From NCBI GenBank assembly GCA_964450145.1, contig CAYVDS010000002.1, forward strand, positions 9,978-73,977: a DNA stretch of 64,000 bases, written 5' to 3'. Of this stretch, positions 1,133-63,637 are shown piece by piece; position 1 is the stretch's first letter, and each line of letters opens with the position of its first letter. The notes beneath the pieces are model-generated. The model ran no database searches, was not told where the DNA came from, and saw nothing but the letters and a program-made list of their open reading frames with translations. The translations under genes were made by a program, and so were the position numbers. This stretch comes from an uncultured bacterium. Its GTDB lineage: Bacteria > Abyssobacteria > SURF-5.

Positions 1133-1161
1133 GAAGAAAGTGTCGCGAGTCACGAGTGACG
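1133..1161. repeat. Heptad-periodic array (7-nt units), GTGACTC flavour
   Basis: The minus strand reads cgtcact cgtgact cgcgaca ctttctt and abuts the -35 hexamer. It has the same flavour and the same orientation relative to the downstream gene as the arrays at 9227 and 14106. Confidence 0.6.
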
Positions 1162-1342
1162 GGTAAAAGGCGGCATAAAATGCGACAAGAAAAGCAAAGA
1201 CATAAAGGGATTCGCTGGAGGCGGGTCGAGTGCTAAGAAGGACGATGGGCCGGCGCCAGCAGGCGTCCGGCCCACTTCTCACGATGAGTGCGCGCATGCG
1301 ATGGCGCGACCTCCGTCCCGCGTGCTGCCCTCGGTGCCTTGC

Positions 1343-1537
1343 CTAGTGATTCACGCTTTCCTCGGCCGCGCGGTCCAAGTCGAGAAAGTCCACGTTATCG
1401 GAGCGAAGTATTGCGAGGTTGACTTCTTCTACTCCCTCCTGAGTCAGTTTCCGCCTCGCGGCGTCGATCGACTCGGCGCGAACGATTCCCTCGTTTGTCT
1501 TGCCTTCCTTGAGGCCGATGTAGTAAAACTTCTTCAT
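1343..1537 (-). CDS. Small hypothetical protein (64 aa)
   Basis: Track ORF with GGAGG 11 nt upstream of the ATG. I recognise no family. Confidence 0.45.
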   Translation of the reverse strand: MKKFYYIGLKEGKTNEGIVRAESIDAARRKLTQEGVEEVNLAILRSDNVDFLDLDRAAEESVNH

Positions 1538-1848
1538 CTGTCCCGGCGCCTCCAGTTAGAACTTGCTGTTTGTTGTAAAGGCAACTCTTGTGCCAATCTT
1601 TGCCCAAATTGGAACTTCATTGATCACAATGAGTTATGAGAGACACCGGGAGCGAGCACAGTGCGTTTGACGCATATTCGTGCACCATTTTGGGAAGGGA
1701 TGTCTTAATTTTGGCCACGCGGTCGATTCAAGAATGAAGGATGACTAGGGTGCTCAACACAAGTATTGCGGGTATTGGCGATTGGTTCTTCGTAGGGGCG
1801 TCCCTACAAATACCGACAAAATCAACTTGAGACGATACCATGCGAGAT

Positions 1849-2832
1849 TTAGGGATTTGGATGGGTCAGCGCATATCCGGCGGAAGCAATGCCCTCGAGG
1901 TGCGTCACGGGTTTCCCGATCGTTCCCCCAAGTCGGAAAGTCACTTTGCCGCGGCTTGCGACGAGGGCCGCTGCGAGCTCGCGTCCCCCGTTGCCGGCCA
2001 GCCGCTCGTCGGTGATGGTGAAGTTCTCCTTGAAAACAACCGAGAACGAACCATCAAGCGGGCTGAGTTCGACGGGATCGGCAAGCTTGGCGACTCCCTG
2101 GCCGGAGATTTCATATCCCGTGCCGCCCGCACTGAACTCGTCGACGAATATGTTCCCGTCTCTTGCCGAAAGTTTTGCAGCAAATTCGACGCCGCGGTTC
2201 TCCGGGAGGGCTAATTTTCCGGTTGTGATCGGTGGGACGTAAACATCTCTTCCCATGACAACCGCCGTCCCGCTCAGGCTCGTCGGGTTCTTCGGATTCG
2301 CCACACCCTCGACGTCCGCATCAACGAAGCCTTGCGCCGTCACGGGCATCTGCAAGAACTCGCAAAGTCGGCTGACATCAAGCGTTCGCGCCCGCGCGTC
2401 GACCGCGATTGACGAAGGCGCGTTCAAAGCATCGCCTGCCGGCGCGTCTGCGCTTAGGGCCATCCACAGCGCTCCGCCGAAGAGTTCACCGTTCATCTCC
2501 GCGTTTACCTTCCCCCTGAAAAGCGGGAGGATAGATATCTTTCCGGAAATCCCGCTAATGGCGAGCTGGCGCGCTTGCCCGCGGATGAAGACGGGGAGAC
2601 TCAGATCGGTGAGTTCGAATGTGGATGGGAAGCGGGCCCTTATTTCACCGACGGTTGTTCCCGCGGGAGCGTTCTGCCTGAGCGCCTCGCCCATGAGTCT
2701 TGCAAGGCGCGAATACGGGCGGGCTATCAGGACAAAGAGCATCAGAAGGAGGAACCCCCCGGCGAGGAACAGCGCCACTCGTTTTGCCCTGCTCTTACGG
2801 CGTGTGGCGCCCGCTTTCTTTGGAGAGATCAT
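1849..2832 (-). CDS. N-terminally membrane-anchored, beta-rich exported protein (weak GspN/AsmA-like impression only)
   Basis: 327-aa ORF with a basic N-terminus followed by one TM helix (VALFLAGGFLLLMLFVLIA). Its start overlaps the stop of the upstream gene in an ATGA (2829-2832). Confidence 0.6.
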   Translation of the reverse strand: MISPKKAGATRRKSRAKRVALFLAGGFLLLMLFVLIARPYSRLARLMGEALRQNAPAGTTVGEIRARFPSTFELTDLSLPVFIRGQARQLAISGISGKISILPLFRGKVNAEMNGELFGGALWMALSADAPAGDALNAPSSIAVDARARTLDVSRLCEFLQMPVTAQGFVDADVEGVANPKNPTSLSGTAVVMGRDVYVPPITTGKLALPENRGVEFAAKLSARDGNIFVDEFSAGGTGYEISGQGVAKLADPVELSPLDGSFSVVFKENFTITDERLAGNGGRELAAALVASRGKVTFRLGGTIGKPVTHLEGIASAGYALTHPNP

Positions 2833-3350: not shown

Positions 3351-3549
3351 CCTTCTTCCTCTTGCTAATCCATCCCTAGGTCGCTCGATTATATAACCAC
3401 AATTCGAGAATTTCAACTCGAAAGTTTGCGGCAAAGAAACGACCCGACCACTGCCTTGAAATTGAGGAACACATATGCTAGGATTAGGCTAAATACGGAC
3501 GAAACCAATCGGTTTTCATGATTTCTTGGAAGGACAGGATTTTAACGTT

Positions 3550-3969
3550 ATGAGAATGACGAGAATATTGTGGATGGCTGTTCCCGTGGTTTTCTTGCTC
3601 GCTATCGTGGCGGCGCAGTGGGGCGCCAGGGTCAAACCCAAGCCAGAGGTCAAGGTCAGACAGATTGTTATAAAGGCTGACGCCACAAAACCCGAAGACA
3701 TCGAGCGCGCCCGCAAGAAGATCGAGGAGGCCTACGCCAAACTGAAACAGGGGGCAAATTTCAAAATGGTTGCCTCATTGCACTCTGAGGCGGACAGTGC
3801 GCGAACAGAAGGCGATCTGGGATGGATCGGCAAAGGCATCCTGCCCAAACGCCTCGAGGACATCGTTTTTTCGCTCCAGCCGGGACAATATAGCGAGATA
3901 GTGTCTGACATTGGCCCCGACACCCACATTTATCGCATCCTTTACGCCGAAGAACGCCGGCATTTTTAG
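3550..3969 (+). CDS. Parvulin-type peptidyl-prolyl cis-trans isomerase with N-terminal membrane anchor
   Basis: Rotamase motifs are present (EGDLGWIGKGILPKRLEDIVFSLQPGQYSEIV, HIYRI), with a TM helix ILWMAVPVVFLLAIVAA. AGGA lies 10 nt upstream of the ATG at 3550; the track ORF starts at a TTG at 3526. Confidence 0.8.
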   Translation: MRMTRILWMAVPVVFLLAIVAAQWGARVKPKPEVKVRQIVIKADATKPEDIERARKKIEEAYAKLKQGANFKMVASLHSEADSARTEGDLGWIGKGILPKRLEDIVFSLQPGQYSEIVSDIGPDTHIYRILYAEERRHF

Positions 3970-4026
3970 GCGATTTGAACTGCCGCCACTCCTAAAGGAA
4001 GGCGAAAGGGGAAAGCAAAAAGAAAG

Positions 4027-4118
4027 AGAGATTGCTTCGCTCCGCCCGCAACGACCAATGCCGATAAAGCTTTCCTTTTACGATTAATCACGCCAAAGGC
4101 GTGATCAGGCGCTCCTAA
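4027..4118 (-). repeat. Composite interspersed element R5, copy C (reverse orientation)
   Basis: The reverse complement reads CTTAGGAGCGCCTGATCACGCCtttGGCGTGATTAATCG...GGTCGTTGCGGGCGGAGCGAAGCAATCTC. It is homologous to the copies at 9287-9387 and 58065-58159. Confidence 0.7.
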
Positions 4119-4162
4119 GAAGCATGCGCTATGTGATTTCCGAGTCCACTACACAAAAATTG

Positions 4163-6319: not shown

Positions 6320-8331
6320 TTGACGCGGGACGACAGCCATTCCGTGCTTCCATCAGCCGCGGTCTCAGCAAGAAGTTCGTGCTGCCGCTCGTTGTGGGAG
6401 CAGCCGTGACGATTGCGTGGGGCGCGCTTTTCGGCTATTACCAAGCTTACAATATGAGGCGGGATAGTCTCGGGACTTCCACGGAGCACGCGGCCGAGAG
6501 CCTGTCGGCGCAAATCGACACGTCGCTCGAGGCGGCCTTGCAGTTGATGATGCAGTTCGCGTCCTCTTCACAGGTACGCGACGCCGTCGCTGAGCGAGAC
6601 AAGAAATATGCTTCGCTCTCGGACGCTGAGGTTTACGAACTGGCCCTTCAGGAGATGGCAATATCGAGAGCATCGAAACAACCGCAGGCTCTTCTTGATT
6701 CGCTAAAGGCAAGCCCGACCGCCGAAAAGCTGAAAGCATTCGCCTCCCTTAATCCGGGATTCGATGTGTTGGAGGTGGCCGACCGCGCCGGCGTCGTCAT
6801 GGCGGCCTTCGGTGAGGCGGAGCCACCGCACCCAAAGAGGGAAGAGTGGCGGCGCCTTGCCGAAATCATGGAACGGGGGAAAGCCGTGATCTCGGAGCCG
6901 GCTTTCACCGAGAGACCCGTCTCGGCCGTTGTCCGGATTCATGTGCCTATTATGTCGGCGGAACCAGCCAACTTCCTGGGCGAGTTGCACGCCGAATATA
7001 GTTTCGACCACATCATCTCCGGACTCGATTCGGCGAAGGAGGAACTGGCGGCGTTCTTGCTCTCAGATTCGAGCGAGCGGCGCCTTTATGTTCTCAGTCC
7101 GCCCGAAATCGCCGCGTCCAGGCCGGCGGATTTTCGGGAGAAGACCGGCAAAATGGCGCCCAAAGAACATGGCTGGTCAATGGTCGAACTTGATCGCCCC
7201 GGCGGAAACATTATCTTCGGCTTTGCGCCAATCGAACATTCCCTGGCGCTTCGTTCCGTCATCTATGAGGGCAAGGATTGGAGCGTCGCCGCAGGGGCGC
7301 CCGAAAGCCGGGTTACGGGCCCTCTGTATTCGCTTTTTATGGGGATAATCGGATTAAGCGCGCTGATGCTTGCCGTGGTCGCTCTCGGCGGTGTCGCACT
7401 GGCCCAGCGCACACTGAGGCCGATTCGTGTGCTTCAGGAAGGAGTGCAGGAGATCGGCCAGGGCAATCTGGAGCACCGTATCGACATCAGGAGCGGGGAC
7501 GAAATCGAGTCGCTCGCGCTCGAGTTCAATCGCATGGCCGACCGCATGCAGCGTACGCAAGAGCAGTTGCAGCGGCGCAGCAAGGAACTTGAACAGCGCG
7601 TCAACCAGTTGAGGCGATTGCAGGCGCAGCTTATGCAGTCGGAACGGATGGCGGCGACGGGCGAGCTCGCGGCGCAGATTGCGCATGAAATAAACAATCC
7701 CCTCGGCATCATCAAGAATTATGTCGGCAACGCGAAAATGCTCATGCGGGACGAAGACCCGAACCGCGAGAACATGAAAATCGTCGACCAGGAGATAAAC
7801 CGCATAGCCGGTATCGTGCGCCGACTCCTCAAATTTGCAAAGCCGGGCACCGAAGATATCCAGTCAGTCCAGATAAATCAGGTGCTCGAAGAGCTCCTTG
7901 CGCTTCTCCGGGGTCAGCTCTTCCGCAGGAAAATTGAGATTTCGACGGAACTGGCCGAGAATCTGCCCGAGGTCAGCGTCTCGATGGACCAGATGCGGCA
8001 GGTGTTCTTGAACCTGATAAAAAACGCCGAGGACGCTATGCCGGACGGCGGCAAGCTGAGCGTGCGAACCCGCTACAGAAAAGGGCGCGTCGAGATAGAC
8101 ATCGCCGATACCGGCTGCGGGATTCCCGCAGAGAATATAAAGAATATATTCGAGCCGTTCTTCACGACGAAGGGCGTGAAAGGCACGGGTCTCGGGCTCT
8201 CCGTGTCATATGGAATCGTGAAGAATTACAGCGGCGAGATAAGTGTCGACAGCGAGCCGGGCAAGGGCGCTACGTTCACCATTCAGCTTCCGGTGGTAAG
8301 CGAAAAGGTTTTCCAGGTAATTCATTCGTGA
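6316..8331 (+). CDS. Sensor histidine kinase with two TM helices, large periplasmic domain, HAMP, HisKA and HATPase_c (canonical motifs)
   Basis: HAMP is present (LRPIRVLQEGVQEIGQGNLEHRIDIRSGDEIESLALEFNRMADRM). The H-box is AHEINNPLGIIKNY, the N-box NLIKNAEDAM, G1 DTGCGI and G2 GTGLGLS. The ATG at 6316 overlaps the upstream stop (ATGA). Confidence 0.92.
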   Translation: MIDAGRQPFRASISRGLSKKFVLPLVVGAAVTIAWGALFGYYQAYNMRRDSLGTSTEHAAESLSAQIDTSLEAALQLMMQFASSSQVRDAVAERDKKYASLSDAEVYELALQEMAISRASKQPQALLDSLKASPTAEKLKAFASLNPGFDVLEVADRAGVVMAAFGEAEPPHPKREEWRRLAEIMERGKAVISEPAFTERPVSAVVRIHVPIMSAEPANFLGELHAEYSFDHIISGLDSAKEELAAFLLSDSSERRLYVLSPPEIAASRPADFREKTGKMAPKEHGWSMVELDRPGGNIIFGFAPIEHSLALRSVIYEGKDWSVAAGAPESRVTGPLYSLFMGIIGLSALMLAVVALGGVALAQRTLRPIRVLQEGVQEIGQGNLEHRIDIRSGDEIESLALEFNRMADRMQRTQEQLQRRSKELEQRVNQLRRLQAQLMQSERMAATGELAAQIAHEINNPLGIIKNYVGNAKMLMRDEDPNRENMKIVDQEINRIAGIVRRLLKFAKPGTEDIQSVQINQVLEELLALLRGQLFRRKIEISTELAENLPEVSVSMDQMRQVFLNLIKNAEDAMPDGGKLSVRTRYRKGRVEIDIADTGCGIPAENIKNIFEPFFTTKGVKGTGLGLSVSYGIVKNYSGEISVDSEPGKGATFTIQLPVVSEKVFQVIHS

Positions 8332-8447
8332 AGAATATGACATACGTTGTGAAACCCTTGTTTCTCCCAACTGTAAACCGTGAAACCCGTCTTCTAAGAC
8401 GGCAGGTTGTGGTTTCTCAGGAAGAACCAGCTTTCTTAAGTATTTAA

Positions 8448-8489
8448 TCAGGAACCAGGAACTCGGAACCTTGAACCATCTTTCTCAAA
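8448..8489. repeat. Heptad-periodic array, 6 units (tcaggaa ccaggaa ctcggaa ccttgaa ccatctt tctcaaa)
   Basis: Exact 7-nt phase read from the sequence. It runs straight into the SD GAGGAGG and the GTG start at 8503. Confidence 0.75.
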
Positions 8490-8502
8490 GAGGAGGCCGT
8501 TT

Positions 8503-9150
8503 GTGGCGGAGCGAAGCAAAATATTGGTAATAGACGATGAGAAGCGCATGTGCGACAGCATAAAAGTGCTGCTGTCGAACATCGGTTACGAGGTGGACAC
8601 CGCCGAGAACGGCCGCGTCGGAATCGAGAGGCTCAAGGCTCAGCAGTACGGCCTCGTCATCACCGACTTGATGATGCCGGAACTGGACGGCTTCGCCGTG
8701 ATGAAACACATAAAGGAACACTGCTCGAATACTCTTGTGATCGTCATCACCGGCTACGCATCGGTTGAATCAGCGGTGAGAGCCATACGCAGCGGCGCTT
8801 ACGACTACATTCTGAAGCCGTTCGACTTCGAGATCATCAAGATATCGGTCGAACGAGCGTGGGACAAACTCAAGCTCGAGAAGGAACTGGAAAAAACGCG
8901 CAAACTTGCCCAGGTGGCCGAGCGCGCGCTGGCGGTAAACGGCGAGATCAATAACCCGCTTTCGGTTGCCTCGGGCTTTGCACAACTTCTGCAGATGCGA
9001 ATCGAAAACAGCGGGGACGATGTGATGAAGCGACAGGTCGATTCGATCGTAAAAGCTTCCGAAAGCATTCACCAAATGTCCTCGCAGTTTCGCCGATTTG
9101 CGCGCACTCTGTTGAACGAAAACGCGGAACAGGATTTGGGAATGATATGA
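8503..9150 (+). CDS. Response-regulator receiver domain fused to a DHp (HisKA)-like helix pair that lacks the phospho-acceptor His and has no ATPase domain
   Basis: The REC motifs are intact (VIDDE, ITDLMMPELDG, ITGY, LKPF). The C-terminal part aligns to H-boxes but reads NGEINNPLSVASGFAQLL, with Gly in place of His. Confidence 0.88.
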   Translation: MAERSKILVIDDEKRMCDSIKVLLSNIGYEVDTAENGRVGIERLKAQQYGLVITDLMMPELDGFAVMKHIKEHCSNTLVIVITGYASVESAVRAIRSGAYDYILKPFDFEIIKISVERAWDKLKLEKELEKTRKLAQVAERALAVNGEINNPLSVASGFAQLLQMRIENSGDDVMKRQVDSIVKASESIHQMSSQFRRFARTLLNENAEQDLGMI

Positions 9151-9226
9151 AATAACGCGGACCGGCCCGCTTTCGCCGCATGACGCAAGATGCTCGGCTT
9201 TGTTGATATTTTGAAAGTGGAAACTC

Positions 9227-9289
9227 GTGACTCGCGACTCCGCGTGTATTTAACCAGAAACCAGCATCTCGAAACCAGAAACTGTTCCT
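9227..9289. repeat. Heptad-periodic array, 9 units (gtgactc gcgactc cgcgtgt atttaac cagaaac cagcatc tcgaaac cagaaac tgttcct); paralog of 14106-14175
   Basis: Read directly. It is roughly 88 percent identical by eye to the array that begins at the uvrA stop codon. Confidence 0.8.
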
Positions 9290-9387
9290 TAGTTAGGAGC
9301 GCTTGATCACGCCTCGGCGTGATTAATTGTGGAAGAAAGGTGAAGCTTGACATCCATCATGTCATTCTGAGCGTAGCGAAGAATCTC
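9287..9387 (+). repeat. Composite interspersed element R5, copy A
   Basis: CCTTAGTTAGGAGCGCTTGATCACGCCtcgGGCGTGATTAATTG...GTCATTCTGAGCGTAGCGAAGAATCTC. It combines an SD-like box, a TGATCACGCC/GGCGTGATTA hairpin and the widespread GTCATTGCGAGCGAAGCGAAGCAATC-type box. Confidence 0.7.
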
Positions 9388-9400
9388 TTTTTTGTTTCTT

Positions 9401-9435
9401 TTGACCTTGAACCTTTGACCTTGAACCTACTTTCT
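9401..9435. repeat. Heptad-periodic array, 5 units (ttgacct tgaacct ttgacct tgaacct actttct)
   Basis: Read directly. It is followed by TTAGGAG and the ATG at 9448. Confidence 0.75.
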
Positions 9436-9447
9436 TAGGAGAGCCAA

Positions 9448-9831
9448 ATGGCGGAAAGCAGAAACATTCTTATAGCCGACGATAACGAAGACGCGCGTCA
9501 ACTCTTTTGTGACATCATCAAGTTGTTGGGCTTTACGCCCAAGGCCGTGAGCAGCGGCGTGGCCGCCCTGCAGCAACTCAAAGTCACCCCTTTCGACATG
9601 GTTATCCTCGACATGCGCATGCCCGACCTCAACGGCCTCGACACGTTCAAAGCCATCCGCCAGTTCGATTCTTCTGTTCCCGTGGTTCTGACGACCGGCT
9701 TCGGCCTGGACAAAGGCGTGCAAGAAGCCCTAAGCATGGGCGCCCTCCTGTGCATCGAGAAACCCTTCAACGTCGCGCGGACCATGAAAACCATCCGCGA
9801 CATTATCGAAAAAGAAACGCCCAGGAAATAG
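9448..9831 (+). CDS. Stand-alone CheY-like response regulator (receiver domain only)
   Basis: 127 aa with the receiver motifs ADDNED, ILDMRMPDLNG, LTTGFG and EKPF. Confidence 0.9.
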   Translation: MAESRNILIADDNEDARQLFCDIIKLLGFTPKAVSSGVAALQQLKVTPFDMVILDMRMPDLNGLDTFKAIRQFDSSVPVVLTTGFGLDKGVQEALSMGALLCIEKPFNVARTMKTIRDIIEKETPRK

Positions 9832-9907
9832 TCGAACTTTTCCCGCCGTCCACCCTTCTTTTCGCTTTTACCCTTTCGCGTAATTCGTGTCACCGGTCTT
9901 CTGCTCA

Positions 9908-9937
9908 TTGACGAACTTTTCAGCAGCGTGTTATACT
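9908..9937 (+). promoter_or_regulatory. Candidate sigma-70 promoter (TTGACG-N18-TATACT with TGt extended -10)
   Basis: cattGACGaacttttcagcagcgTGtTATACTttt. It points toward the small ORF at 10128 and pcm. Confidence 0.4.
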
Positions 9938-10003
9938 TTTTCGACAGACTTGGACGGGGCATTCCGAGCAATTGACCGCGTCTGTGGCGGACTTGGAGAA
10001 GCA

Positions 10004-10054
10004 TGGATTCCCGCCCCGCGCCCCCCAAGGGGGGACAGGCTTCGCAGGAATGAC
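10004..10054. repeat. R1 hairpin repeat, long-loop variant (TGGATTCCCGC...GGACAGGCTTCGCAGGAATGAC)
   Basis: It shares both arms and the loop end GGACAGGCTTyGCrGGAATGAC with the copy inside mtaB (41879-41928). Confidence 0.6.
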
Positions 10055-10082
10055 ATAAATTACGTAGCTTTTTGAATCTCAG

Positions 10083-10110
10083 CCAGAAACTCGGAACCGG
10101 GAACCGCATT
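10083..10110. repeat. Heptad-periodic array, 4 units (ccagaaa ctcggaa ccgggaa ccgcatt)
   Basis: Read directly. It is followed by the SD GGTGGAGG and the GTG at 10128. Confidence 0.65.
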
Positions 10111-10127
10111 TCGGTGGAGGACACGAG

Positions 10128-10274
10128 GTGAAGTTGGAGAGTTTTTCCTATCGAGTCGTCCTGAAGACGCTCGAAGTTCTTGAGACACAATATCATTACA
10201 AGATTCCGGAAGAAGCAAAGAAAGAGATTGCCGAGGCGGTCGTCAAACAGATAGACTCGTTGCTGGAAGAGTAG
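10128..10274 (+). CDS. Small hypothetical protein (48 aa; VKLESFSYRVVLKTLEVLETQYHYKIPEEAKKEIAEAVVKQIDSLLEE)
   Basis: Too short for the ORF track. A strong SD (GGTGGAGG) lies 7 nt upstream of the GTG. The product looks helical with charged residues. It sits in the gap before pcm. Confidence 0.35.
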   Translation: MKLESFSYRVVLKTLEVLETQYHYKIPEEAKKEIAEAVVKQIDSLLEE

Positions 10275-10324
10275 ATGTCCCCGTTTCACATGAGCGAATA
10301 CCCCCGGCAATTCTCGGCTCGACC

Positions 10325-10999
10325 ATGATGACTCTGTTTGGAAGAGCGGCAGCCCCTCCCGATTTCGACGAAGCCCGCCGATTGATGGTTGAAAGACAAC
10401 TTCGCGGCCGTGGAATCAAGGATGAGAGAGTGCTTGCCGCCATGCTGCTTGTGCCGAGGCATGAATTCGTGCCCGACGAGCTTAAGGCCCAGGCGTACGA
10501 GGACCATCCGATCTCGATCGGAGAAAACCAAACCATTTCACAGCCGTTCATGGTCGCGATCATGACGCAGGAACTCCTGCTGAAACCCTCCGATCAGGTG
10601 CTTGAGATCGGCACGGGCAGCGGGTACCAGGCGGCGGTTCTTTCGAGGCTGGCGTCGATGGTCTACACAGTCGAGAGGCGTCAGCGTCTGGCCTGCCTCT
10701 CTTACGCGACGCTGGCGAAGCTCGGCTACCGTAACGTGAGCGTTTTCTGCGCGGACGGAAGCAGAGGACTTCCGGATAATGGGCCATATGACGGCATAAT
10801 CGTCACGGCCGGCGCGCCGGAAGTTCCCACTGTATTGCTCGAACAACTCGCCGACGGTGGCAGGCTCGTGATACCCGTCGGCCAGAAAATGCATCAGGTT
10901 TGCAAACGGATAACGAAGTGGGGGAGCCGCTACGAAACCGAAGACCTGACCGGCTGCGTTTTTGTCCCGCTCATCGGGAGGTTCGGCTGGGAAATTTAG
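10325..10999 (+). CDS. pcm: Protein-L-isoaspartate O-methyltransferase
   Basis: Diagnostic motifs are present: [51 protein letters not shown] and GGRLVIPVG. Confidence 0.93.
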
Positions 11000-11095
11000 G
11001 CATCGTAAGGGGTCTACACGGCCCGTTGCCCAAACCAAATTCGATGAATTTCCTGGCCGGATGGAGCATGATATTCATGGAATTCTTTTTTTTAT

Positions 11096-11120
11096 CATTC
11101 CCGCGAAGGCGGGAATCCAT
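11096..11120. repeat. R1 hairpin repeat (TCATTCCCGCgaagGCGGGAATCCA)
   Basis: Palindrome read directly. The same unit occurs at 28941, 28991 (inverted), 57814, 59478 and 41879. Confidence 0.75.
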
Positions 11121-11241
11121 TTTTCTTCTAACCGAAACATTTGGGCAACACGCCGTACACATTGACAAGATTGCAACTGAAAAATATTGGGGCCATAAAG
11201 TTGGTCTTGTCAATGCGTGACCCCTTACGAGAGGGAATCTG

Positions 11242-14109: not shown

Positions 14110-14175
14110 CTCGTGACTCGCGACTCCGCATGTATTCAACAAGAAACCAGAATCTCGAAACCAGAAACCGTTCTT
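14106..14175. repeat. Heptad-periodic array, 10 units (gtgactc gtgactc gcgactc cgcatgt attcaac aagaaac cagaatc tcgaaac cagaaac cgttctt)
   Basis: Read directly. The uvrA stop codon TGA (14107-14109) lies inside the first unit. It is a paralog of 9227-9289 with one extra unit. Confidence 0.8.
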
Positions 14176-14210
14176 AAAGAGGTGTTGCCTTTATCCGAAA
14201 CGGTGAGTGT

Positions 14211-15755: not shown

Positions 15756-15772
15756 TACGGAAAAGGGTTGAC

Positions 15773-20126: not shown

Positions 20127-20167
20127 TTATTCGGGGACACGATGCCGCATCGTGTCCCCGAATAAAC
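20127..20167. repeat. R2 hairpin repeat (TTTATTCGGGGACACGATGccgCATCGTGTCCCCGAATAAA)
   Basis: Roughly 18-bp perfect stem, read directly. It lies immediately downstream of the DUF302 gene and may act as its terminator, although no U-tract follows. Confidence 0.75.
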
Positions 20168-20564: not shown

Positions 20565-20606
20565 GGAGCGCCTCCTCTTGTATTGAGATACGAAAGGCTG
20601 TCGCAC

Positions 20607-20703
20607 AATTCTGTAGGTGCGAATTTATTCGCAGTCGCAGCGCAAAAAAAAGCTGGAAATCCAGCCTATGGCGGGATGTGAATAAATTCGCACCTACAGG
20701 AAT
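20607..20703. repeat. R3 inverted-repeat element (TTCTGTAGGTGCGAATTTATTCGCA ... TGAATAAATTCGCACCTACAGGAA)
   Basis: About 24-bp terminal inverted repeats around a roughly 45-nt core. Related copies are at 25045, 32757 and 51377. Confidence 0.75.
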
Positions 20704-20867
20704 CCGCGCCAAATTTTCAATTACGGGACAGATTCATGAGCGACATTTCGGTGAACACGGAATCACAATACTATAACGCGAGTGCGTGCGATTGGACAGG
20801 AAGTCACATGCATGACCGGCCTATGCGAAGCCGGCTGCGGGAAAGGGTCGTTTCAGGTCTCGGCAAA

Positions 20868-21692: not shown

Positions 21693-21739
21693 AGCAACTC
21701 CCTCTCGTGTCGGAGTCCGGTGTCAAGCCTTCTCCTTTG

Positions 21740-25156: not shown

Positions 25157-25176
25157 GAGGGAAACGAGTTGTTGAA

Positions 25177-28915: not shown

Positions 28916-28940
28916 CCTACCCGAGGCCACAACCTCCTTA

Positions 28941-29017: not shown

Positions 29018-29040
29018 TCGTGGTTACCTTTTCGGGTAAA

Positions 29041-29140: not shown

Positions 29141-29144
29141 ATCT

Positions 29145-37646: not shown

Positions 37647-37695
37647 TTTAGACTTCGCACTTAGACCTTGGACTTTGGACCTTGGACTCATTAAC
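37647..37695. repeat. Heptad-periodic array, 7 units (tttagac ttcgcac ttagacc ttggact ttggacc ttggact cattaac)
   Basis: Read directly. It is followed by the SD AGGAGG and the dnaK ATG at 37713. Confidence 0.75.
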
Positions 37696-56666: not shown

Positions 56667-56935
56667 AAGCCAATTTCGCAGGTATTGGCCTTGACCTCGA
56701 ATCTTTTTTAGGTCGGATCCGGCGACCATTTCAACCAGGGACTGTTTCCGCGTCAGCCCCCGGCACTCTCCGAAAAAAGGCGAAAGGGAAAACCTAAGAA
56801 GACTAATTCCCAGTTTCTGCTTGAATCCCCGCATTTCTGCCTTTGTCCTTCCCCTTTTGCGCATTCTGCCTTTATGTTTCATTCCTCATTCTTGCAAAGG
56901 CAGGAATCCACTCTTACTGCGAGTTCCATTGGCTT

Positions 56936-57790: not shown

Positions 57791-57813
57791 TGCCGTTCCC
57801 CGCTCGTTTTATT

Positions 57814-57836
57814 ATTACCGCGAAAGCGGGAATCCA
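57814..57836. repeat. R1 hairpin repeat (ATTACCGCgaaaGCGGGAATCCA)
   Basis: Read directly, 24 nt upstream of the sulfotransferase start. Confidence 0.65.
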
Positions 57837-57985: not shown

Positions 57986-58055
57986 GTAATTCGGGACATG
58001 ATGCTCATCGTCAGCTTATTCGGGGACACCTTGCCGCAAGGTGTCCCCGAATAAG
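57986..58055. repeat. R2 hairpin repeat, 1.5 copies
   Basis: GTAATTCGGGACATGATGCTCATCGTCAG + CTTATTCGGGGACACCttgccgcaaGGTGTCCCCGAATAAG. Confidence 0.75.
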
Positions 58056-58064
58056 CGGCCAGAT

Positions 58065-58159
58065 CCTTAGTTAGGAGCCTCTGACCACGCCTCCGGCGTG
58101 ATTAACTGTCAAAGGAAGGGTTTAGCGGATGGTCATTGCGAGCGAAGCGAAGCAATCTC
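58065..58159 (+). repeat. Composite interspersed element R5, copy B
   Basis: CCTTAGTTAGGAGCCTCTGACCACGCCtccGGCGTGATTAACTG...GGTCATTGCGAGCGAAGCGAAGCAATCTC. Confidence 0.7.
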
Positions 58160-58273
58160 TTTACTTTTTCGCCTTCTCTTCTCTTTTCAACTCGAGACTC
58201 GACACTCGGAACTCGAAACCCGCGCGTTTCGCGCGGCTCCCTTTCCCCTTGTTCCTTTCCCCTTTCCCCTTTC
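58160..58273. repeat. Three consecutive short-period arrays (TTCTCTT flavour, ACTCGAG/ACTCGGA flavour, CCCTTTC flavour) separated by the hairpin GCGCGtttCGCGC
   Basis: caactcg agactcg acactcg gaactcg aaacccg ... ccctttc cccttgt tcctttc ccctttc ccctttc, then TTAGGAG and the ATG at 58286. Confidence 0.75.
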
Positions 58274-58285
58274 TTAGGAGTGTAC

Positions 58286-61200
58286 ATGGGCAAAAAGAAA
58301 CGAAATAATCGCAACGTGAGGAAGAACGCCGCCGGTTCTATCGCCCTGTGCATGATTGTCAAGAACGAGGAAGCAAACCTCGCCCGCTGCCTCGAAAGCG
58401 TGCGAGGTCTAGTGTCGGAAATAAACATAGTCGATACGGGTTCAAGCGACAACACCATTCGGCTGGCGGAAAGCCTCGGAGCGAAGATGCGGCGTGAGCA
58501 GTGGGTCAATGATTATAGCCGCGCCCGGAATGCCTCGATTGAGATGGCGCGCGCTGAGTGGATATTGGTGCTCGATGCCGACGAAGTTCTCTCTCCCGAC
58601 GCAATTCATAAGATTGAAGCAGCCGTTCGACGGCCGGGGATAGACGGATACGTGCTCCCGACCCGCAACTACATGAACGATCCGTCCGTGGCGAATTTTG
58701 TGGCGAATGATGGAGGTTATGAACCTGCGCGCGCATTCAAAGGATGGGTCGAATCTCGCAAAGTGCGCCTGTTCAAGCGGCGGAATGGCATTCGATTCGA
58801 GGGGGAGATACACGAGGTAATCGGGCCTTCAATACGCCGCTCCGGCGGAAGAACAGAATTCCTTGATGCGGCAGTCCACCACTTCGGTTTCCTCGCGCCG
58901 GCGGATACGCTCAAGGAAAAGGCTGCGAGGATGCTGGCGCTCGCAGAAGCGAAATGCGAGAGCCAAAACCGCAACTATCAAGCGCACTATGAACTTGGCG
59001 TGATCCTCGCTCAGCTCGGCAGCCTCGAAAAGGCAGAGAATAGTTTCAGAAAAGCGATTGCGCTTCGGGATGATTTTGCTCTGGCCCATTATGATCTGGC
59101 CGTGGTCCTCGCACGAGCCAGTCGGTTCGACGATGCGATTTCAGAATATCGGACCACTCTTAAACTCGACCCGCAGAATGCGGATGCCCTGTGTAACCTC
59201 GCCGTCTGTTTTCAGAAACTCGGTCGCAGCAAAGAGGCCGAGGAGACCTACCGGCTGCTGCTCGAAAAGCATCCGCATGAAAAGCGCGGATGGAACAACC
59301 TGGGCGCATTGCTGGCCTCGATGGGAAAGTTGGCGGAGGCCGAGCAATCGTTTGAGAACGCCGTCCAAATCGACCCCGACTTCTCACTCTCCCTCCAGAA
59401 CCTTAAAAGCATCCGCACCCTGAAAACGCAGAGCGGCGCTTTTGCAACGAAGCGACAACAAAGCAACCCACCCGAATGTCATTCCCGCGAAAGCGGGAAT
59501 CCATTCGATAACAGCAAGTCATTGAACACGTGGTCGTTACCCTCTGCGGCTGACACTGCTTCTCCAACCCTGGCCCTCATCATGATTGTCAGGAACGAAG
59601 AGGACAATCTCAGCGAACTCCTTCCCGAACTCGCGCCCTGTTTCGATGAGATTGTCATCGTTGATACAGGCTCACGCGACAAGACCGCAGAAATCGCTGG
59701 AAAGTTCACCGACAACGTGTTCCATTTCTCATGGATAGATGACTTCTCGGCGGCAAGGAATTTCGCGCTCTCAAAGTGCGAGGCCGATTGGATTCTCTGG
59801 CTCGACGCCGACGACAGGATGCGGCGCGACGATATAGCCGCAATCAGACCTCATATCTCGAAACCGAACAAGGCATATTTACTGAAGGTCGTATCTTCCG
59901 CCGGTGATTCGGACACTGCGGAGTTCATCCAGATTCGCCTGTTCCCGAATATCGAAGGGGTCGAGTGGGAAGGACGAATTCATGAGCAGTTACTCCCTTC
60001 TCTGAAGCGGAAAGGGCTGGATTTCGAGCTGCTGCCGGATGCGACCGTTATCCATAAAGGCTACGACGACGCGAACATGTTGAGACAGAAAACCCGGAGA
60101 AATATACACTTGCTCGAGAAAGAGCGCGATTTGAGACCGGACGACCCCAATGTGCTGCACCATCTCGCGCAGGCCTACGCTATCGTGGGTGAATTTATGC
60201 AAGCTATCGAAACGTCCGAGAGCTTTATTCGGGTCCTTCATGAGCATCCAAAAAGCGAGTTCATGACGTCGGCGATAAATCGGCTTATCCAATGTTATCT
60301 CTTTAAGGGAAATGTTGAGAGGGCGCGCGCGTGGGGCGGGCGGCTCCTGGAAATGGACCCCCAAAACCGGCTCGCGCGCTATTTCATGGGGGAAATACGG
60401 TATCGGATGGGATTGTTCGAGGAAGCCGCTGATTGGTTCAGACAATTCTGCACGACAAAGGAAACGGTCGGCCTGGTTCCCGTGCCGTGGGCTGCTCTAA
60501 ACGCAAACGCGCACAACTACCTTGGACTTGTCTACGAGCGCACCGGCCAGCGCGAGAAAGCGCGCGCCGAATTCCGCACGGCAATTGAACTCGGCGCGAG
60601 AGTCGAAGCGTACAAGAATCTGGCCTTACTATGTCTCGAAGATGGCGATTCCGCCGCGGCGGAGACCACGCTGCGCGCCGCGATAGAGCACGGTCACAAG
60701 AACGCCGACATCTGGACGAATCTCGGCGTCGCCCTCGCGCGCTTGCAGAGATATGACGAGGCCGCGGCGTCGTTTCGGAAAGCGCTCGAAATTGACCCCG
60801 CCGACAAAGCAGCCCGTGAGAATCTCAAACGGCTGGAACACAAGCTCCGATGCGACCTCAGCCTGAACATGATTGTCCGCGATGAGGAGAAGAACCTTCG
60901 CGAGGCGCTAGCCTCTATCGCGAATCTGTTTGACGAGATAGTCATTGTCGACACGGGCTCTCAAGATAGCACTATCGCCGTAGCCGAAGAGTTAGGCGCA
61001 CGAGTCATTCATCATCCATGGACCGACAATTTTGCCGAGGCGAGAAACGCCGCGCTTAAGAATAGCAGCGGTAAATGGGTCTTCTGGCTCGATGCCGACG
61101 ACAGAATCGAACCGCAAGCCGTGCGCACACTTCGTAAATTCATCGCTCGCGAAATTCCATGCGGTGTCTTCTTCCCCCTTGAGTCGACAATCGGGAACAA

Positions 61201-61864
61201 CGGCCAAAGCGTCCAGAATTATACGCTCAGAATGTTCCCGAATACTCCTGAGGTTTCATGGAAAGGCGCCGTGCACGAACAGATAGCGGACAGCCTGCGC
61301 GACTGCGGCATTGACCTCGTGAACTGTCCCGATCTCACCATCCGGCATGTCGGCTACGAGAACGAGGCGGACGCCCTGAAAAAGAACCTTCGGAACCTGA
61401 ATCTGCTCGCCAAAGAACTGGCCTCCAGACCGGATGACCCGTACGTTGTGTTCGCGCTGGCGCAGGCGTTCCTCTTCTTTGGGCAAGAACAGCACGCCGT
61501 CAAATGGCTCCAGCTTCTTTGGAAAGTGCGAGAGGAGAAGGGTGATTCTTCGGCGCGCGACATCTTCTGGATGGCTGCCCTTATGCTCTCGGACTGCGCC
61601 GCGCGCTCCGGTTCCGTCGCTGAAGTCGAGACGTGGCTCGAGCGCGCAATCGAGCTTTCCCCTTCCACCTGGGTCGCATATTTTCTCCTCGGCGAGAGAA
61701 AACTTCTCGAAGGACAGACCGAACGCGCTTCCGACCTTCTCCGCAAAGCGGAAAAGATCGGTATAACTCCGACGTTGGTCCCGCTCGACATAAACACGAT
61801 AAGGGAAAAACTCGAACGATATTTGGAAGAATTAAGGCAGGCGCCAATCGGCAACCATGTCTAA
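58286..61864 (+). CDS. Triple-module glycosyltransferase: (GT2 GT-A domain + TPR) x3 in one 1192-aa polypeptide
   Basis: Three paralogous GT-A starts are present: IALCMIVKNEEANL..IVDTGSSDNT..LDADE, LALIMIVRNEEDNL..IVDTGSRDKT..LDADD and LSLNMIVRDEEKNL..IVDTGSQDST..LDADD. Each is followed by TPR-like helices. The ATG at 58286 has the SD AGGAG 5 nt upstream; the track ORF starts at 58136 inside repeats. Confidence 0.85.
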   Translation: MGKKKRNNRNVRKNAAGSIALCMIVKNEEANLARCLESVRGLVSEINIVDTGSSDNTIRLAESLGAKMRREQWVNDYSRARNASIEMARAEWILVLDADEVLSPDAIHKIEAAVRRPGIDGYVLPTRNYMNDPSVANFVANDGGYEPARAFKGWVESRKVRLFKRRNGIRFEGEIHEVIGPSIRRSGGRTEFLDAAVHHFGFLAPADTLKEKAARMLALAEAKCESQNRNYQAHYELGVILAQLGSLEKAENSFRKAIALRDDFALAHYDLAVVLARASRFDDAISEYRTTLKLDPQNADALCNLAVCFQKLGRSKEAEETYRLLLEKHPHEKRGWNNLGALLASMGKLAEAEQSFENAVQIDPDFSLSLQNLKSIRTLKTQSGAFATKRQQSNPPECHSRESGNPFDNSKSLNTWSLPSAADTASPTLALIMIVRNEEDNLSELLPELAPCFDEIVIVDTGSRDKTAEIAGKFTDNVFHFSWIDDFSAARNFALSKCEADWILWLDADDRMRRDDIAAIRPHISKPNKAYLLKVVSSAGDSDTAEFIQIRLFPNIEGVEWEGRIHEQLLPSLKRKGLDFELLPDATVIHKGYDDANMLRQKTRRNIHLLEKERDLRPDDPNVLHHLAQAYAIVGEFMQAIETSESFIRVLHEHPKSEFMTSAINRLIQCYLFKGNVERARAWGGRLLEMDPQNRLARYFMGEIRYRMGLFEEAADWFRQFCTTKETVGLVPVPWAALNANAHNYLGLVYERTGQREKARAEFRTAIELGARVEAYKNLALLCLEDGDSAAAETTLRAAIEHGHKNADIWTNLGVALARLQRYDEAAASFRKALEIDPADKAARENLKRLEHKLRCDLSLNMIVRDEEKNLREALASIANLFDEIVIVDTGSQDSTIAVAEELGARVIHHPWTDNFAEARNAALKNSSGKWVFWLDADDRIEPQAVRTLRKFIAREIPCGVFFPLESTIGNNGQSVQNYTLRMFPNTPEVSWKGAVHEQIADSLRDCGIDLVNCPDLTIRHVGYENEADALKKNLRNLNLLAKELASRPDDPYVVFALAQAFLFFGQEQHAVKWLQLLWKVREEKGDSSARDIFWMAALMLSDCAARSGSVAEVETWLERAIELSPSTWVAYFLLGERKLLEGQTERASDLLRKAEKIGITPTLVPLDINTIREKLERYLEELRQAPIGNHV
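59478..59504. repeat. R1 hairpin repeat inside the CDS, in frame, at the module 1/2 junction
   Basis: GTCATTCCCGCgaaaGCGGGAATCCAT, translated as CHSRESGNPF. Confidence 0.75.
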
Positions 61865-61990
61865 CCGTGGTGCGAGCCTGCCACTGTGGGGCGAAGCCGT
61901 CATTCTGAGCGTCTGACCGCACCTCCTCCGCTGAGCTTATCCCAAACGCAAAGGATATGGGGGTAAACATCGAAGGCGTAAATTCCGGCA

Positions 61991-63328
61991 ATGCTGTCCA
62001 ATCCAAAATCTAAAATCCAAAATCTAGAATGTGGTACCATTTCTCTCTGCATGATCGTCCGCAACGAGGAGCGCTTTCTGGCCGATTGTCTGAGAAGCGT
62101 GCGCGGAGTAGTTGACGAAATAGTCGTCATAGACACGGGCTCGTGTGACGCGACACCTCGTATCGGAGCCGATTTCGGGGCGCGCGTGCTGCCATTTGAA
62201 TGGAACGACGACTTCAGCGCGGCGCGAAATCATTCGGTTCAAAACGCGCGCGGCGACTGGATACTCATTCTCGATGCCGACGAGGTCATCGCACAACGCG
62301 ACAAATCGAAAATCCTGAGCCTCGCGCAAGGCGATGCCGACGGGTACCTGTTCACATATCGCAACTATTCTCAGAACAGTCACGATATTCGCTGGGTAGC
62401 CAACGACGGGTCATATACCGAAGCCGATGGGTGGGATGGATGGATTCCCGGCCAGGTTGTCCGTATGTTCAGGCGCGACGGCCGCATCCGCTTTCTTGGC
62501 GCGGTGCATGAGAGGGTGGACCAGTCGATTCGCCGTTTCGGAGGAAGAATCGCCGAGACGGACATCATCGTCCACCATTTTCATGAGAAAAAGGGGGAAC
62601 AGCGACTCCGGGAGAAACAGCTCTCGTATTTGCGTCTCTGCGAGAGAAGCATGGTAAAGTGTCCGAACGACCCTAAGACCCACTTCGACATGGGGCTCGT
62701 TTACAGACATGTGCTCAAGGATTTTCCAAAAGCGATTTCGCACCAGGAACAGGCTGTCCGGCTCAGACCCGATTTTGAAGATGCCCATACCGAACTTGCC
62801 CTCCTCTACCATCTCACCAATGATACGACGAATGCCGCTAAGGAAATCTCCATTCTTCTCCGCCACAACCCTGGACACGCGCCCGCGCTGGTTTTGTGTG
62901 GTATAATCTTTGAGAGACGCGGAAGGCCTGAGCGCGCCATCGAGTGTTACGAGCGCGCGCTCAAGGCGAACCCGAATCTCGTTGATGCGCGCCTGAATCT
63001 TGGAACACTGTATCTTAAGAAAAGCGACGCAGCGCGAGCGCGCATAGAATTGGAGGAGGCTCTCCGGGTCAATCCGTCGAATCCGCGGGCGCTCCTGAAT
63101 CTTGGGGCGCTCGAACTGCGCCAGGGCAACGATACGGCTGCGGAGACCCTGTTGCGCAAAGCGCTTGAAAAATCGCCTGAGAGCGCACTCGCGTGGAGCA
63201 ATATGGGCGTGGTGTACGCGCGCACAGGCCGAAACGAGCAGGCGCGCGAAGCCTTCGCGAAAGCCGTTGCGCTTGAGCCCTCCCGCGAGGATGTCCGCCG
63301 CAATCTCGAGGCCAGTTGTCGCTCGTAG
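61991..63328 (+). CDS. GT2 GT-A domain + TPR glycosyltransferase (fourth paralogous module, 445 aa)
   Basis: ISLCMIVRNEERFL..VIDTGSCDAT..FSAARN..LDADE, followed by TPR repeats (PDFEDAHTELALLY, NPNLVDARLNLGTLY, NPSNPRALLNLGAL). Confidence 0.88.
   Translation: MLSNPKSKIQNLECGTISLCMIVRNEERFLADCLRSVRGVVDEIVVIDTGSCDATPRIGADFGARVLPFEWNDDFSAARNHSVQNARGDWILILDADEVIAQRDKSKILSLAQGDADGYLFTYRNYSQNSHDIRWVANDGSYTEADGWDGWIPGQVVRMFRRDGRIRFLGAVHERVDQSIRRFGGRIAETDIIVHHFHEKKGEQRLREKQLSYLRLCERSMVKCPNDPKTHFDMGLVYRHVLKDFPKAISHQEQAVRLRPDFEDAHTELALLYHLTNDTTNAAKEISILLRHNPGHAPALVLCGIIFERRGRPERAIECYERALKANPNLVDARLNLGTLYLKKSDAARARIELEEALRVNPSNPRALLNLGALELRQGNDTAAETLLRKALEKSPESALAWSNMGVVYARTGRNEQAREAFAKAVALEPSREDVRRNLEASCRS
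62000..62027. repeat. Heptad-periodic array, 4 units (aatccaa aatctaa aatccaa aatctag) inside the first 12 codons of the CDS
   Basis: Read directly, translated as SNPKSKIQNLE. The same flavour occurs at 63617-63637. Confidence 0.7.
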
Positions 63329-63616
63329 GCGCCAAGAGGTATTCTTAACTGCAGATTCACGCAGGCGAACGCAGCGCGGCCAAGGCCGCAACCAAAAAGA
63401 AGAAGAAACTCTGGGAACACGAATGTTACAAATGGAAAAGCGAATGCACGAATCCATTTCAGAATACGGAGTTATATACATAATATTCTTGAAAATCACG
63501 ACAAAAATTCAAGACATTAACAGTGAGTAGTGCGGTGAGTATTGACTTATAAGTCTTTCCTCTGCGATCCTCCGCGGCCTTTGCGGTTCAGTTTTTCTTA
63601 TTTTGGGCAGCAGTGA

Positions 63617-63637
63617 TCTAAAATCCGAAATCCAAAA
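63617..63637. repeat. Heptad-periodic array, 3 units (atctaaa tccgaaa tccaaaa)
   Basis: Read directly, 8 nt upstream of the ATG at 63645. Confidence 0.6.

Follow-up and report, generated by a model that had tools for sequence, protein, structure and literature searches.

We analyzed a 64,000-nucleotide (nt) stretch of DNA (referred to throughout as 'the window') from the metagenome-assembled genome (MAG) of an uncultured bacterium of the Abyssobacteria (SURF-5), which carries roughly 19 short tandem arrays of 7-nt units, several of them just upstream of the Shine-Dalgarno (SD) site and start codon of a gene. We conclude, with moderate confidence, that these arrays are lineage-specific heptanucleotide satellite repeats, comparable to the long simple-sequence repeats (LSSRs) and short tandemly repeated repetitive (STRR) sequences of other bacteria, that were recently acquired and are tolerated beside ribosome-binding sites (RBSs). 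The observations underlying this reading are an excess of period-7 sequence, the existence of multi-copy modules, insertion relative to compact relatives, the location of one array in a 5′ untranslated region (5′UTR), stability between two assemblies, and the lack of a predicted effect on the RBS.

Extent and specificity of the period-7 excess

The original prediction for this DNA had reported tandem 7-nt arrays at at least 13 loci, and the sequences at the positions that it gave agree with its description. Tandem Repeats Finder (TRF) returned 13 period-7 arrays in the window (at 8449, 9252, 9400, 14105, 14138, 21750, 29114, 37461, 37660, 58189, 58239, 62000 and 63616), each comprising 2.1–5 copies with 66–93% matches between units. 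An unbiased autocorrelation scan, in which a region required 15 or more matches among 21 comparisons at lag k and first-order Markov simulations served as control, identified 16 period-7 regions versus 0.4 expected. The non-triplet lags 4, 5, 8, 10, 11 and 13 gave 0–3 regions each in the same scan. The background, estimated from 80 unrelated bacterial dnaK loci (drawn from among the matches listed for the conserved peptide MAKVIGID, all from distant phyla and with no more than 76% identity), was 29 period-7 regions in 1.38 Mb, or 1.35 per 64 kb, which is not above that of other non-triplet periods. Comparison with simulations, other lags and unrelated loci therefore indicates a genuine excess, specific to period 7 and to this lineage. 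The pattern RACYNNNRACYNNNRACY, for which 0.22 matches were expected in the window, occurs 14 times, every time on the plus strand.

Seventeen of the 19 arrays are intergenic, and only the one at 61995–62030 lies within the first codons of a gene. A coding origin was considered and rejected, and CRISPR was ruled out, because the 7-mer units are contiguous rather than being 20–50 nt repeats separated by unique spacers; on both points the earlier description stands. Tandem head-to-tail 7-nt units without spacers, in excess over composition, intergenic and variable among relatives, are the features by which LSSRs are recognized, and the arrays of the window show all of them.

A second assembly, L085 (GCA_016208005.1), spans positions 8149–17908 of the window at 99.9% identity, differing by nine substitutions and one 58-nt indel, and every array between 8446 and 14169 is identical in the two. 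The source genome is a short-read MAG, in which tandem repeats are error-prone, and an assembly or binning artefact was accordingly considered. The presence of the arrays unchanged in the second record, together with an orthologous array in another MAG and the fact that the arrays are shorter than a read, makes the probability of such an artefact practically negligible; nor are the arrays visibly phase-variable at this shallow depth of comparison (two genomes). A 58-nt segment at window positions 14507–14564 is missing from L085, where a 514-aa open reading frame (ORF) is split into genes of 104 and 398 aa.

Pattern scans of viral contigs were uninformative on specificity, since GAACY heptads, three composition-matched control cores and a period-8 version each gave at least 120 matches. 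Among the matches listed, short tandem arrays of many kinds are common in viral contigs, and the orientation of GAACY arrays to nearby starts is weak (26 sense versus 15 antisense, of 56 that are not possibly coding). A metagenome scan with a clade-specific 873-aa protein recovered relatives at 37–80% identity only, with heptads at background level; the G+C content of these relatives is mostly 59–69%, with three loci at 43–46%. Inverted heptad pairs, such as (AATGACC)n ahead of (GGTCATT)n and (AAGGTTC)n ahead of (GAACCTT)n, were seen in a Kiritimatiellia MAG (L044, 2272–2340 and 6825–6900) and in viral contigs (L087, L110 and L117), where they form long hairpins just past stop codons or ahead of starts.

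Unit sequences and larger repeat modules

Ten of the arrays have in common the core nnnRACY, with consensus units that include CGTGACT, AGGAACC, AGAAACC, TTTGACC, CGAAACC, CTGAACC and TTGGACC. The A and C columns of this core are the least variable (4 and 7 mismatches, versus 12–18 elsewhere), a difference that is only suggestive (chi-square P = 0.08). CCCTTTC (complement GAAAGGN) and AATCYAA are minor unit types. The unit sequences had been described as distinct flavors; these are not independent, given the shared core and the finding that several arrays are copies of larger modules.

A perfect 14-nt (two-unit) duplication is present at 9400–9428, and higher-order 14-nt periods occur at 37648 and 62000, all of which point to in-register duplication. 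The recent perfect duplication implies that the tracts are dynamic, and might be taken to favor their use as phase-variation (contingency) tracts, in which gain or loss of units by slippage switches or tunes the downstream gene. The unit length is not a multiple of three, and one array (61995–62030) falls within the opening codons of a glycosyltransferase of the surface-polysaccharide type. We nevertheless regard this reading, which the original prediction had raised, as very improbable and not borne out: the degeneracy of the units (66–93% matches) suppresses slippage, no change in unit number separates the two assemblies over 8446–14169 despite nine single-nucleotide differences and the 58-nt indel, and for most arrays, which sit upstream of the SD, unit number alters neither reading frame nor −35/−10 spacing.

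Three families of composite elements contain arrays. The first, D6, is found at 9223–9287 and 14109–14173 (92% identity over 65 nt) and includes two arrays. Its first copy, on the plus strand (9211–9287), consists of a CGTGACT-type array, a GAAACCA-type array and TTCCTTAGTTAGGAG; the second (14097–14173, plus strand) has the same CGTGACT and GAAACCA arrays and lies between the uvrA stop codon (14109) and a gene at 14211. D11 has three copies, of which 8455–8484 and 10083–10112 are 80% identical. The third, termed module M, is about 100 nt long and is present in three copies in both orientations (9284–9441 and 58066–58282 on the plus strand, 4125–3989 on the minus strand), its parts being arranged as TTAGGAGC, a hairpin GATCACGCC..GGCGTGATTAA and GTCATTGCGAGCGAAGCGAAGCAATCTC, after which come a pyrimidine tract and heptad arrays.

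The M copy at 9284–9441 carries the array TTTGACC TTGAACC x2 (9400–9428), then CTTTCTTAGGAG and the ATG (9448) of a response regulator. That at 58066–58282 carries a GAGACTC-type array (58187–58224) and a CCCTTTC x5 array (58239–58274), again followed by CTTTCTTAGGAG, with the ATG of a glycosyltransferase-TPR protein at 58286. The inverted copy (3989–4125, minus strand) is located just 3′ of the stop codon of the gene at 3526–3969 and comprises YTTAGGAG, the hairpin, GTCGTTGCGGGCGGAGCGAAGCAATCTC and a pyrimidine heptad tract that, when read on the plus strand, is the purine-rich array at 3997–4027. Direct repeats of YTTAGGAG, a sequence with 7 matches versus 2.25 expected, flank all three M copies, and the pyrimidine tract CTTTCTT recurs ahead of SD sites (repeat D13). 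No terminal inverted repeats were seen on the three copies, and no transposase or RAYT partner was identified. Small ORFs within the module were rejected for want of a conserved frame. The arrangement of M tail plus array also precedes a gene in a related MAG (locus L003). The dispersed composite copies (two of D6, three each of M and D11), present or absent at orthologous sites, resemble those of mobile intergenic elements of the MITE or REP type.

The hairpin motif CATTGCGAGCGAAGCGNNGCAATC forms the tail of module M (58132–58159, 9365–9392 and, on the minus strand, 4028–4055) and is also present in L003, L083 and L587. It is very widespread in environmental sequence, with at least 120 IMG/VR contigs matching a pattern of 22 specified bases; a general association with heptads was rejected, a period-7 array being found within 130 nt downstream of 3 of 130 motif copies.

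Other repeat families are expanded in the window as well (D1, D2 and I1/I2), as palindromes resembling repetitive extragenic palindromic (REP) sequences. D1 consists of 39-nt perfect palindromes, TTATTCGGGGACAC..GTGTCCCCGAATAA, at 20127–20165, 30977–31015, 32017–32055 and 58016–58054, most of them placed closely behind a gene. The sequence TCATTCCCGCGAAGGCGGGAATCCA represents a second REP-like family, present at 11092–11119, 28938–28965, 28989–29016 (inverted), 56883–56910, 57809–57836 and 59476–59503; the last of these copies lies inside a long glycosyltransferase-TPR ORF, and another is inserted between PCMT and uvrA. A third, around CTGTAGGTGCGAATTTATTCGCA (I1/I2/D7/D18), occupies 20592–20718, 25051–25146 and 32737–32832, and has 96-nt arms, 84% complementary and 7.6 kb apart, that bracket the gene block 25126–32713.

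Comparison with related genomes

The UvrA protein encoded in the window is 100% identical to that of a MAG labelled Candidatus Lindowbacteria, and its next relatives, at 80–90% identity, carry the labels Poribacteria, Abyssobacteria SURF_17 and SURF_5, and Hydrogenedentota. An exact look-up of the DnaK protein gave no match. The syntenic loci of six relatives in this 80–90% range hold none or one period-7 region per ~23 kb; on another contig of the 90% relative, 12.6 kb contain three. The original prediction had suggested a search of related genomes for the same architecture. Such a search finds an array before the gene RR127 in L081 and the M-plus-array arrangement in L003; at most orthologous sites the arrays are missing.

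Junctions in the relatives are compact. The kinase-RR215-RR127 junctions measure 18–28 nt and have plain SD sites in L082, L689 and L690, versus 171 and 297 nt in the window. The array at 8446 is missing at the orthologous junction, which is 22–28 nt in the same three relatives and a 191-nt spacer without an array in L081. The PCMT-uvrA spacer is ~5 nt in relatives versus 242 nt in the window, where a REP-like hairpin is inserted. We take the absence of arrays from compact orthologous junctions to indicate that they are recent, lineage-specific insertions. In another relative, L084 (CP070779.1, a 3.5-Mb record), runs of exactly 100 N lie between genes at 6547–6646, 12877–12976 and 17562–17661, one of them directly after uvrA, and may represent scaffold gaps or masking at intergenic repeats.

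A further case is a conserved 48-aa gene with a GTG start at 10128. A sigma-70-type promoter, TTGACG-18-TATACT (9908–9937, plus strand), is located 190 nt before this gene in the window, and the same promoter is kept ~53 nt before it in the relatives examined (L081–L084, L688 and L690). The 5′UTR has thus grown from ~53 to 190 nt, with a hairpin element and the array AGAAACT CGGAACC GGGAACC (10083–10105, plus strand) inserted between the conserved promoter and the native GGAGG SD, which the array adjoins. Because the promoter is upstream, this array lies in a transcribed 5′UTR, and the suggestion that the arrays are transcribed is supported for at least this one; other arrays are intercistronic in apparent operons.

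The only array shared at an orthologous site is that before RR127 (9400–9428 in the window, ahead of the ATG at 9448), where L081 has TTAACCC TGAACCC GAAACCT TGAACCA followed by TAGGAG, and the window has TTGACCT TGAACCT TTGACCT TGAACCT followed by TTAGGAG. The two are in register, with four units each and 21 of 28 positions identical. The 90% relative L003 carries a G-rich (GGGGTTT)n tract on the sense strand (2089–2129) that ends ~9 nt before a start and could form a G-quadruplex, by analogy with repeats of Nostoc and Xanthomonas.

Taken with the above, these comparisons suggest the following scheme, in which the mechanism (slippage or duplication), the selective filter that explains position and polarity, and a weak functional impact are steps that we infer. 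Slipped-strand or unequal duplication, in register, would account for growth and turnover of the arrays, which would also spread within the larger multi-copy intergenic modules (the 65-nt D6, and M with its hairpin, GTCATTGCGAGCGAAGCGAAGCAATCTC, pyrimidine tract, array and YTTAGGAG). They would have inserted into spacers and 5′UTRs that were compact in the ancestor, where the only permissive space was probably the stretch leading up to the SD from the preceding stop codon or promoter. An ancestral spacer of ~20 nt leaves only stop-to-SD room, so that insertion alone largely yields the order array, SD and start. Non-palindromic direct repeats may not trap the SD in structure, and survivors would then accumulate 5′ of the RBS, mostly in one strand polarity. 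The arrays would be transcribed as leader or intercistronic RNA, with an effect on expression that is probably small and incidental.

Position and polarity relative to genes

Eight of the ~19 arrays end 7–41 nt before a start codon (those of the genes at 8503, 9448, 10128, 14211, 29145, 37713, 58286 and 63645). A recognizable SD (TTAGGAG, AGGAGG, GGAGG or GAGGTG) is kept after six of these eight, and none is recognizable at 29145 and 63645. The architecture of array, SD and start, originally described as constant, is therefore found for these eight, two of them lacking the SD, while the remaining arrays are elsewhere: after stop codons (3997, 37460), far upstream of starts (9211, 34975, 58187), 5′ of a promoter-like −35/−10 pair (1141–1161), within the first codons of a gene (61995) or antisense in the 3′ tail of gshA (21739). 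When the 14 intergenic arrays of the unbiased scan were each randomized within their own spacer, 5 of 14 lay no more than 25 nt from a start, versus 2.1 expected (P = 0.04). The claim of frequent placement directly 5′ of an SD and start thus stands, as an enrichment that is real but modest. On the sense strand, 12 of the 19 are G-poor, as had been described for most of them; four (3997, 21739, 34975 and 37460) are purine- or G-rich there. The same four arrays have no gene to serve or are opposite in polarity, which we count in favor of satellite repeats.

Several observations weigh against that reading. In addition to the enrichment near starts, arrays of the RACY type are sense-oriented in eight of nine intergenic regions; the presence of the RACY core in ten arrays fits shared descent and would not be predicted from independent slippage of random heptamers; the array is the element nearest the RBS in all four spacers that also hold a hairpin element; and the RR127 array is as conserved as the adjacent SD, which, judged from the aligned sequences, hints at constraint or concerted evolution. 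A satellite origin also leaves the unit length of 7 unexplained.

One alternative is that the arrays are functional mRNA leader elements, forming either a standby or enhancer platform or a multimeric site for an RNA-binding protein with a footprint of ~7 nt (such as S1 or a cold-shock-domain protein), and together a post-transcriptional regulon. We consider this possible, if rather doubtful. It is consistent with the eight arrays 7–41 nt before starts and the enrichment in the unbiased subset, with the sense polarity and G-poor composition, with the location of the 10083 array in a 5′UTR and the in-register retention of the RR127 array in L081, and with a shared RACY core that leaves three positions variable. 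The recurrent CTTTCTT tract before the SD and the consistent order of hairpin, array and SD point the same way, and the same idea has been raised for the heptamers of Beggiatoaceae and Nostoc. The evidence on the other side begins with the relatives, in which most orthologous sites have no array and the genes keep ordinary SDs. More than half of the arrays are away from starts, four are opposite in polarity, and the genes that follow the arrays share no function. Insertions into ~20-nt spacers would be expected to adjoin the SD in any case. The polarity is itself confounded with absolute strand: eight of the nine RACY regions are also on the plus strand, so that transcription-linked and replication-linked polarity are inseparable in this window.

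Predicted effects on the ribosome-binding site and promoters

Folding predictions bear directly on the proposal that the arrays act as unstructured leaders that keep the RBS open. The predicted unpaired probability of the SD and start (−70 to +30) was 0.45 in the 8 array genes versus 0.49 in 20 other genes (all P > 0.1). In constructs spanning −200 to +40, mean predicted accessibility was 0.43 whether the array was intact (wild type), deleted or shuffled, and 0.41 when it was inverted. Since accessibility is flat across array status, this mechanism is not supported, and the corresponding part of the original prediction fails; the lack of a predicted effect on the RBS likewise counts against a functional leader element in general.

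A more specific version of the leader proposal is that the heptads and the recurrent CTTTCTTAGGAG tail make up a mobile 'leader cassette' that installs a new RBS region. In this version a single-strand-binding protein (S1, a cold-shock-domain protein or another oligomer) would recognize the nnnRACY heptads at the RNA level, each domain or protomer taking up one unit, and a lineage-specific post-transcriptional regulon would result. We think this unlikely.

The arrays might instead operate as DNA, either as operator arrays of cooperative heptad sites for a DNA-binding protein (as for the omega repressor) or as −35-like TTGACC/GTGACT motifs that modulate promoters. The heptads are contiguous and lack spacers, as such sites would be, the units TTGACC and GTGACT resemble −35 hexamers, and a study of recO/recF in Nostoc suggests that heptamers affect the access of regulators to promoters. 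One array (1141–1161) is directly upstream of a good −35/−10 pair and is the only one to adjoin a −35 box; the other arrays are in leaders. Most lie between a promoter or upstream gene and the SD, that at 10083 well downstream of its conserved promoter, and scans of the array-bearing spacers found no promoter-like sites over the arrays themselves. The units are also too diverse for a single sequence-specific protein, and no candidate regulator gene turned up, although no search aimed at one (for example of the ribbon-helix-helix type) was made. We judge the operator explanation to be decidedly improbable.

Two further candidate roles were rejected: an extended −10 element in the CGTGACT arrays, for which the spacing does not fit, and a terminator, for which only a weak hairpin inside the 29078 tract was flagged. 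No Rfam family was matched in the window at gathering thresholds, permissive settings gave only chance-level matches, and no tRNA or tmRNA genes were found in the window. At 32896–33228 (minus strand) there is a sub-threshold match to the cspA thermoregulator (27 bits versus a gathering score of 78, E = 0.004), a sequence resemblance that suggests a nearby cold-shock protein gene with a long leader.

Individual arrays

The array near the −35 box, CGTCACT CGTGACT CGCGACA, spans 1141–1170 and is followed by CTTTCTTC, TTGACA (1132–1127), a 17-nt spacer and TAGAAT (1109–1104), upstream of a MerR-family gene with its ATG at 1049. The array earlier reported as abutting a −35 box at 1133 is on the minus strand, sense to the MerR-family gene, and just 5′ of this −35/−10 pair.

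Among the start-adjacent arrays on the plus strand, AGGAACC AGGAACT CGGAACC TTGAACC (8446–8479) is followed by ATCTTTCTCAAAGAGGAGG and the GTG start (8503) of a response regulator with a HisKA domain, and TTAGACC TTGGACT TTGGACC TTGGACT (37651–37688) by CATTAACAGGAGG and the dnaK ATG at 37713. The longest tract (29037–29137, plus strand) comprises, on manual phasing, ~14 units of the types nTGAACC and AGAAACC, interrupted by TTCCTTTGGAG and GTTTCTTGACC. It is placed after a pair of REP-like hairpins (28918–29038) and ends 7 nt before an ATG at 29145, with no SD. Two arrays further from starts are those of CACTCTT CACCCGT CACTCTT CCCACTT (34975–35009, plus strand), which is rich in purines on its sense (minus) strand, adjoins no start codon and lies ~190 nt ahead of the gene that begins at 34787, and a purine-rich AAAGGCG-type array (37460–37489, plus strand) directly after the grpE stop codon.

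The array GCTAACC CGGAACC CGAGACC CGAGATC AGAAACC (21739–21773, plus strand) runs antisense to the minus-strand genes on either side of it and supplies the final ~10 codons of gshA (21740–23035). It had been noted as an inverted array at a gene's 3′ end (21743), to which we add that it lengthens the GshA ORF: a C-terminal extension of ~10 residues (..GVSDLGSRVPG; 21743–21775), absent from three relatives, is encoded by this antisense heptad array.

The array AATCCAA AATCTAA x2 (61995–62030, plus strand) lies in the first ~13 codons of a glycosyltransferase-TPR gene that starts at 61991, exactly the placement first described for it, and an array of the same type, AATCCGA AATCCAA (63616–63637, plus strand), is 7 nt before an ATG at 63645 with no clear SD. 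The 1192-aa protein encoded just upstream (58286–61864) has three glycosyltransferase-2 modules interleaved with TPR repeats and is followed by the single-module paralogue (61991–63328); internal DNA repeats spaced ~1.2–1.3 kb apart (D3/D5/D10) indicate tandem duplication.

Significance

Reports of over-represented heptamer repeats close to start codons go back to 1990 for cyanobacteria, and later ones cover many genomes (2007), Beggiatoaceae (2015) and Nostoc (2022); no mechanism or function has gained acceptance. The window adds a phylogenetically distant case, from a subsurface candidate-phylum MAG, in which close relatives lack arrays at these sites, so that the insertions can be dated and compared, gene by gene, before and after. 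The data favor tolerated repetitive DNA, which cautions against assigning regulatory roles by position alone. The finding would gain considerably in importance if the arrays proved to be bound by a protein or to raise translation, and a leader cassette, if real, would provide the first mechanistic handle on the start-proximal heptamers of cyanobacteria and Beggiatoaceae. For annotation, the arrays account for inflated intergenic spacers, for short ORF extensions such as that of GshA and possibly for assembly breaks in related genomes.

Comparison with known repeats and regulatory systems

Of the known systems, the TAACTGA heptamers of marine Beggiatoaceae and the heptamers of Nostoc come nearest to the window arrays. 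Mazel et al. reportedly described the STRR sequences of cyanobacteria in 1990. As in those and the Nostoc repeats, the genome represented by the window contains several heptamer units in tandem, intergenic and near starts, at times overlapping the start. The STRR and Nostoc units (CCCCAGT, TTGGTCA, CAACAGT, TTTTGAA and GACYAAT) differ from the nnnRACY, CCCTTTC and AATCYAA units described here, cyanobacterial arrays are often long and perfect, and the window arrays have neither the unit sequences nor the heterocystous cyanobacterial host of STRRs in the strict sense. In Nostoc PCC 7120, no more than 100 nt separates contiguous heptamers (TTTTGAA, GACYAAT) from starts or −10 boxes, and deletion constructs showed modest regulatory effects (Pradhan et al. 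2022, 10.1101/2022.06.06.494920).

As cited in later studies (PMC4679880, PMC4692102), heptanucleotides are the most abundant class of LSSRs in many bacteria, and polymerase slippage has been proposed as their origin (Mrazek 2007). Of the 170 TAACTGA repeat sets in the Beggiatoaceae genome BOGUAY, 147 are directed at a start codon; most end one or a few nt upstream of it, and only ~10% have an SD (MacGregor 2015, PMC4679880). The same study proposed that they act in translation by way of S1, Csp or CsrA. The window arrays resemble these in being contiguous 7-nt direct repeats (2–6 or more copies) and intergenic, with some overlapping ORF ends and with functionally mixed downstream genes. A forward orientation and an end close to a start codon are seen here in part, for eight of ~19 arrays and with a polarity that is confounded with strand. 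The TAACTGA repeats have one fixed unit, with related heptamers rare and the RBS overlapped or replaced, whereas the window, in another phylum, has many degenerate RACY variants, an SD after six of eight start-adjacent arrays and larger modules; a single fixed unit that replaces the SD was not found. At a given intergenic site, the GGGAATC repeats of Xanthomonas differ widely from one close relative to another (Rehm et al. 2015, PMC4692102). This lineage-specific intergenic heptamer excess, variable among close relatives and with a proposed slippage origin, is shared with the window. Most window arrays are G-poor on the sense strand, unlike the G-rich, G-quadruplex-forming repeats of Xanthomonas and Nostoc.

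Modular, multi-copy intergenic repeats with hairpins and variable-number subunits, inserted in either orientation, are known as REP/BIME, pneumococcal BOX and Neisseria Correia elements. The window modules are likewise composite, multi-copy, located in intergenic DNA and 5′UTRs, and present or absent at orthologous sites; the variable subunit is a 7-nt satellite here and a ~45-nt subunit or palindrome in the known elements. The omega repressor (a ribbon-helix-helix protein of pSM19035 and inc18 plasmids) binds tandem WATCACW heptads that overlap promoters. Those operators, too, are contiguous 7-bp units, direct or inverted, but the window arrays are mostly in transcribed leaders and their units are diverse. 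Targets of GcvB in Salmonella contain C/A-rich translational enhancers upstream of the SD that are not periodic; the window arrays are similarly G-poor tracts just 5′ of the SD, but are periodic and have no predicted effect on accessibility. As satellite arrays, the heptads of the window belong to a kind of bacterial repeat that has already been described; what is new is the RACY-core unit family, the retention of the SD, the composite modules and the subsurface candidate-phylum host.

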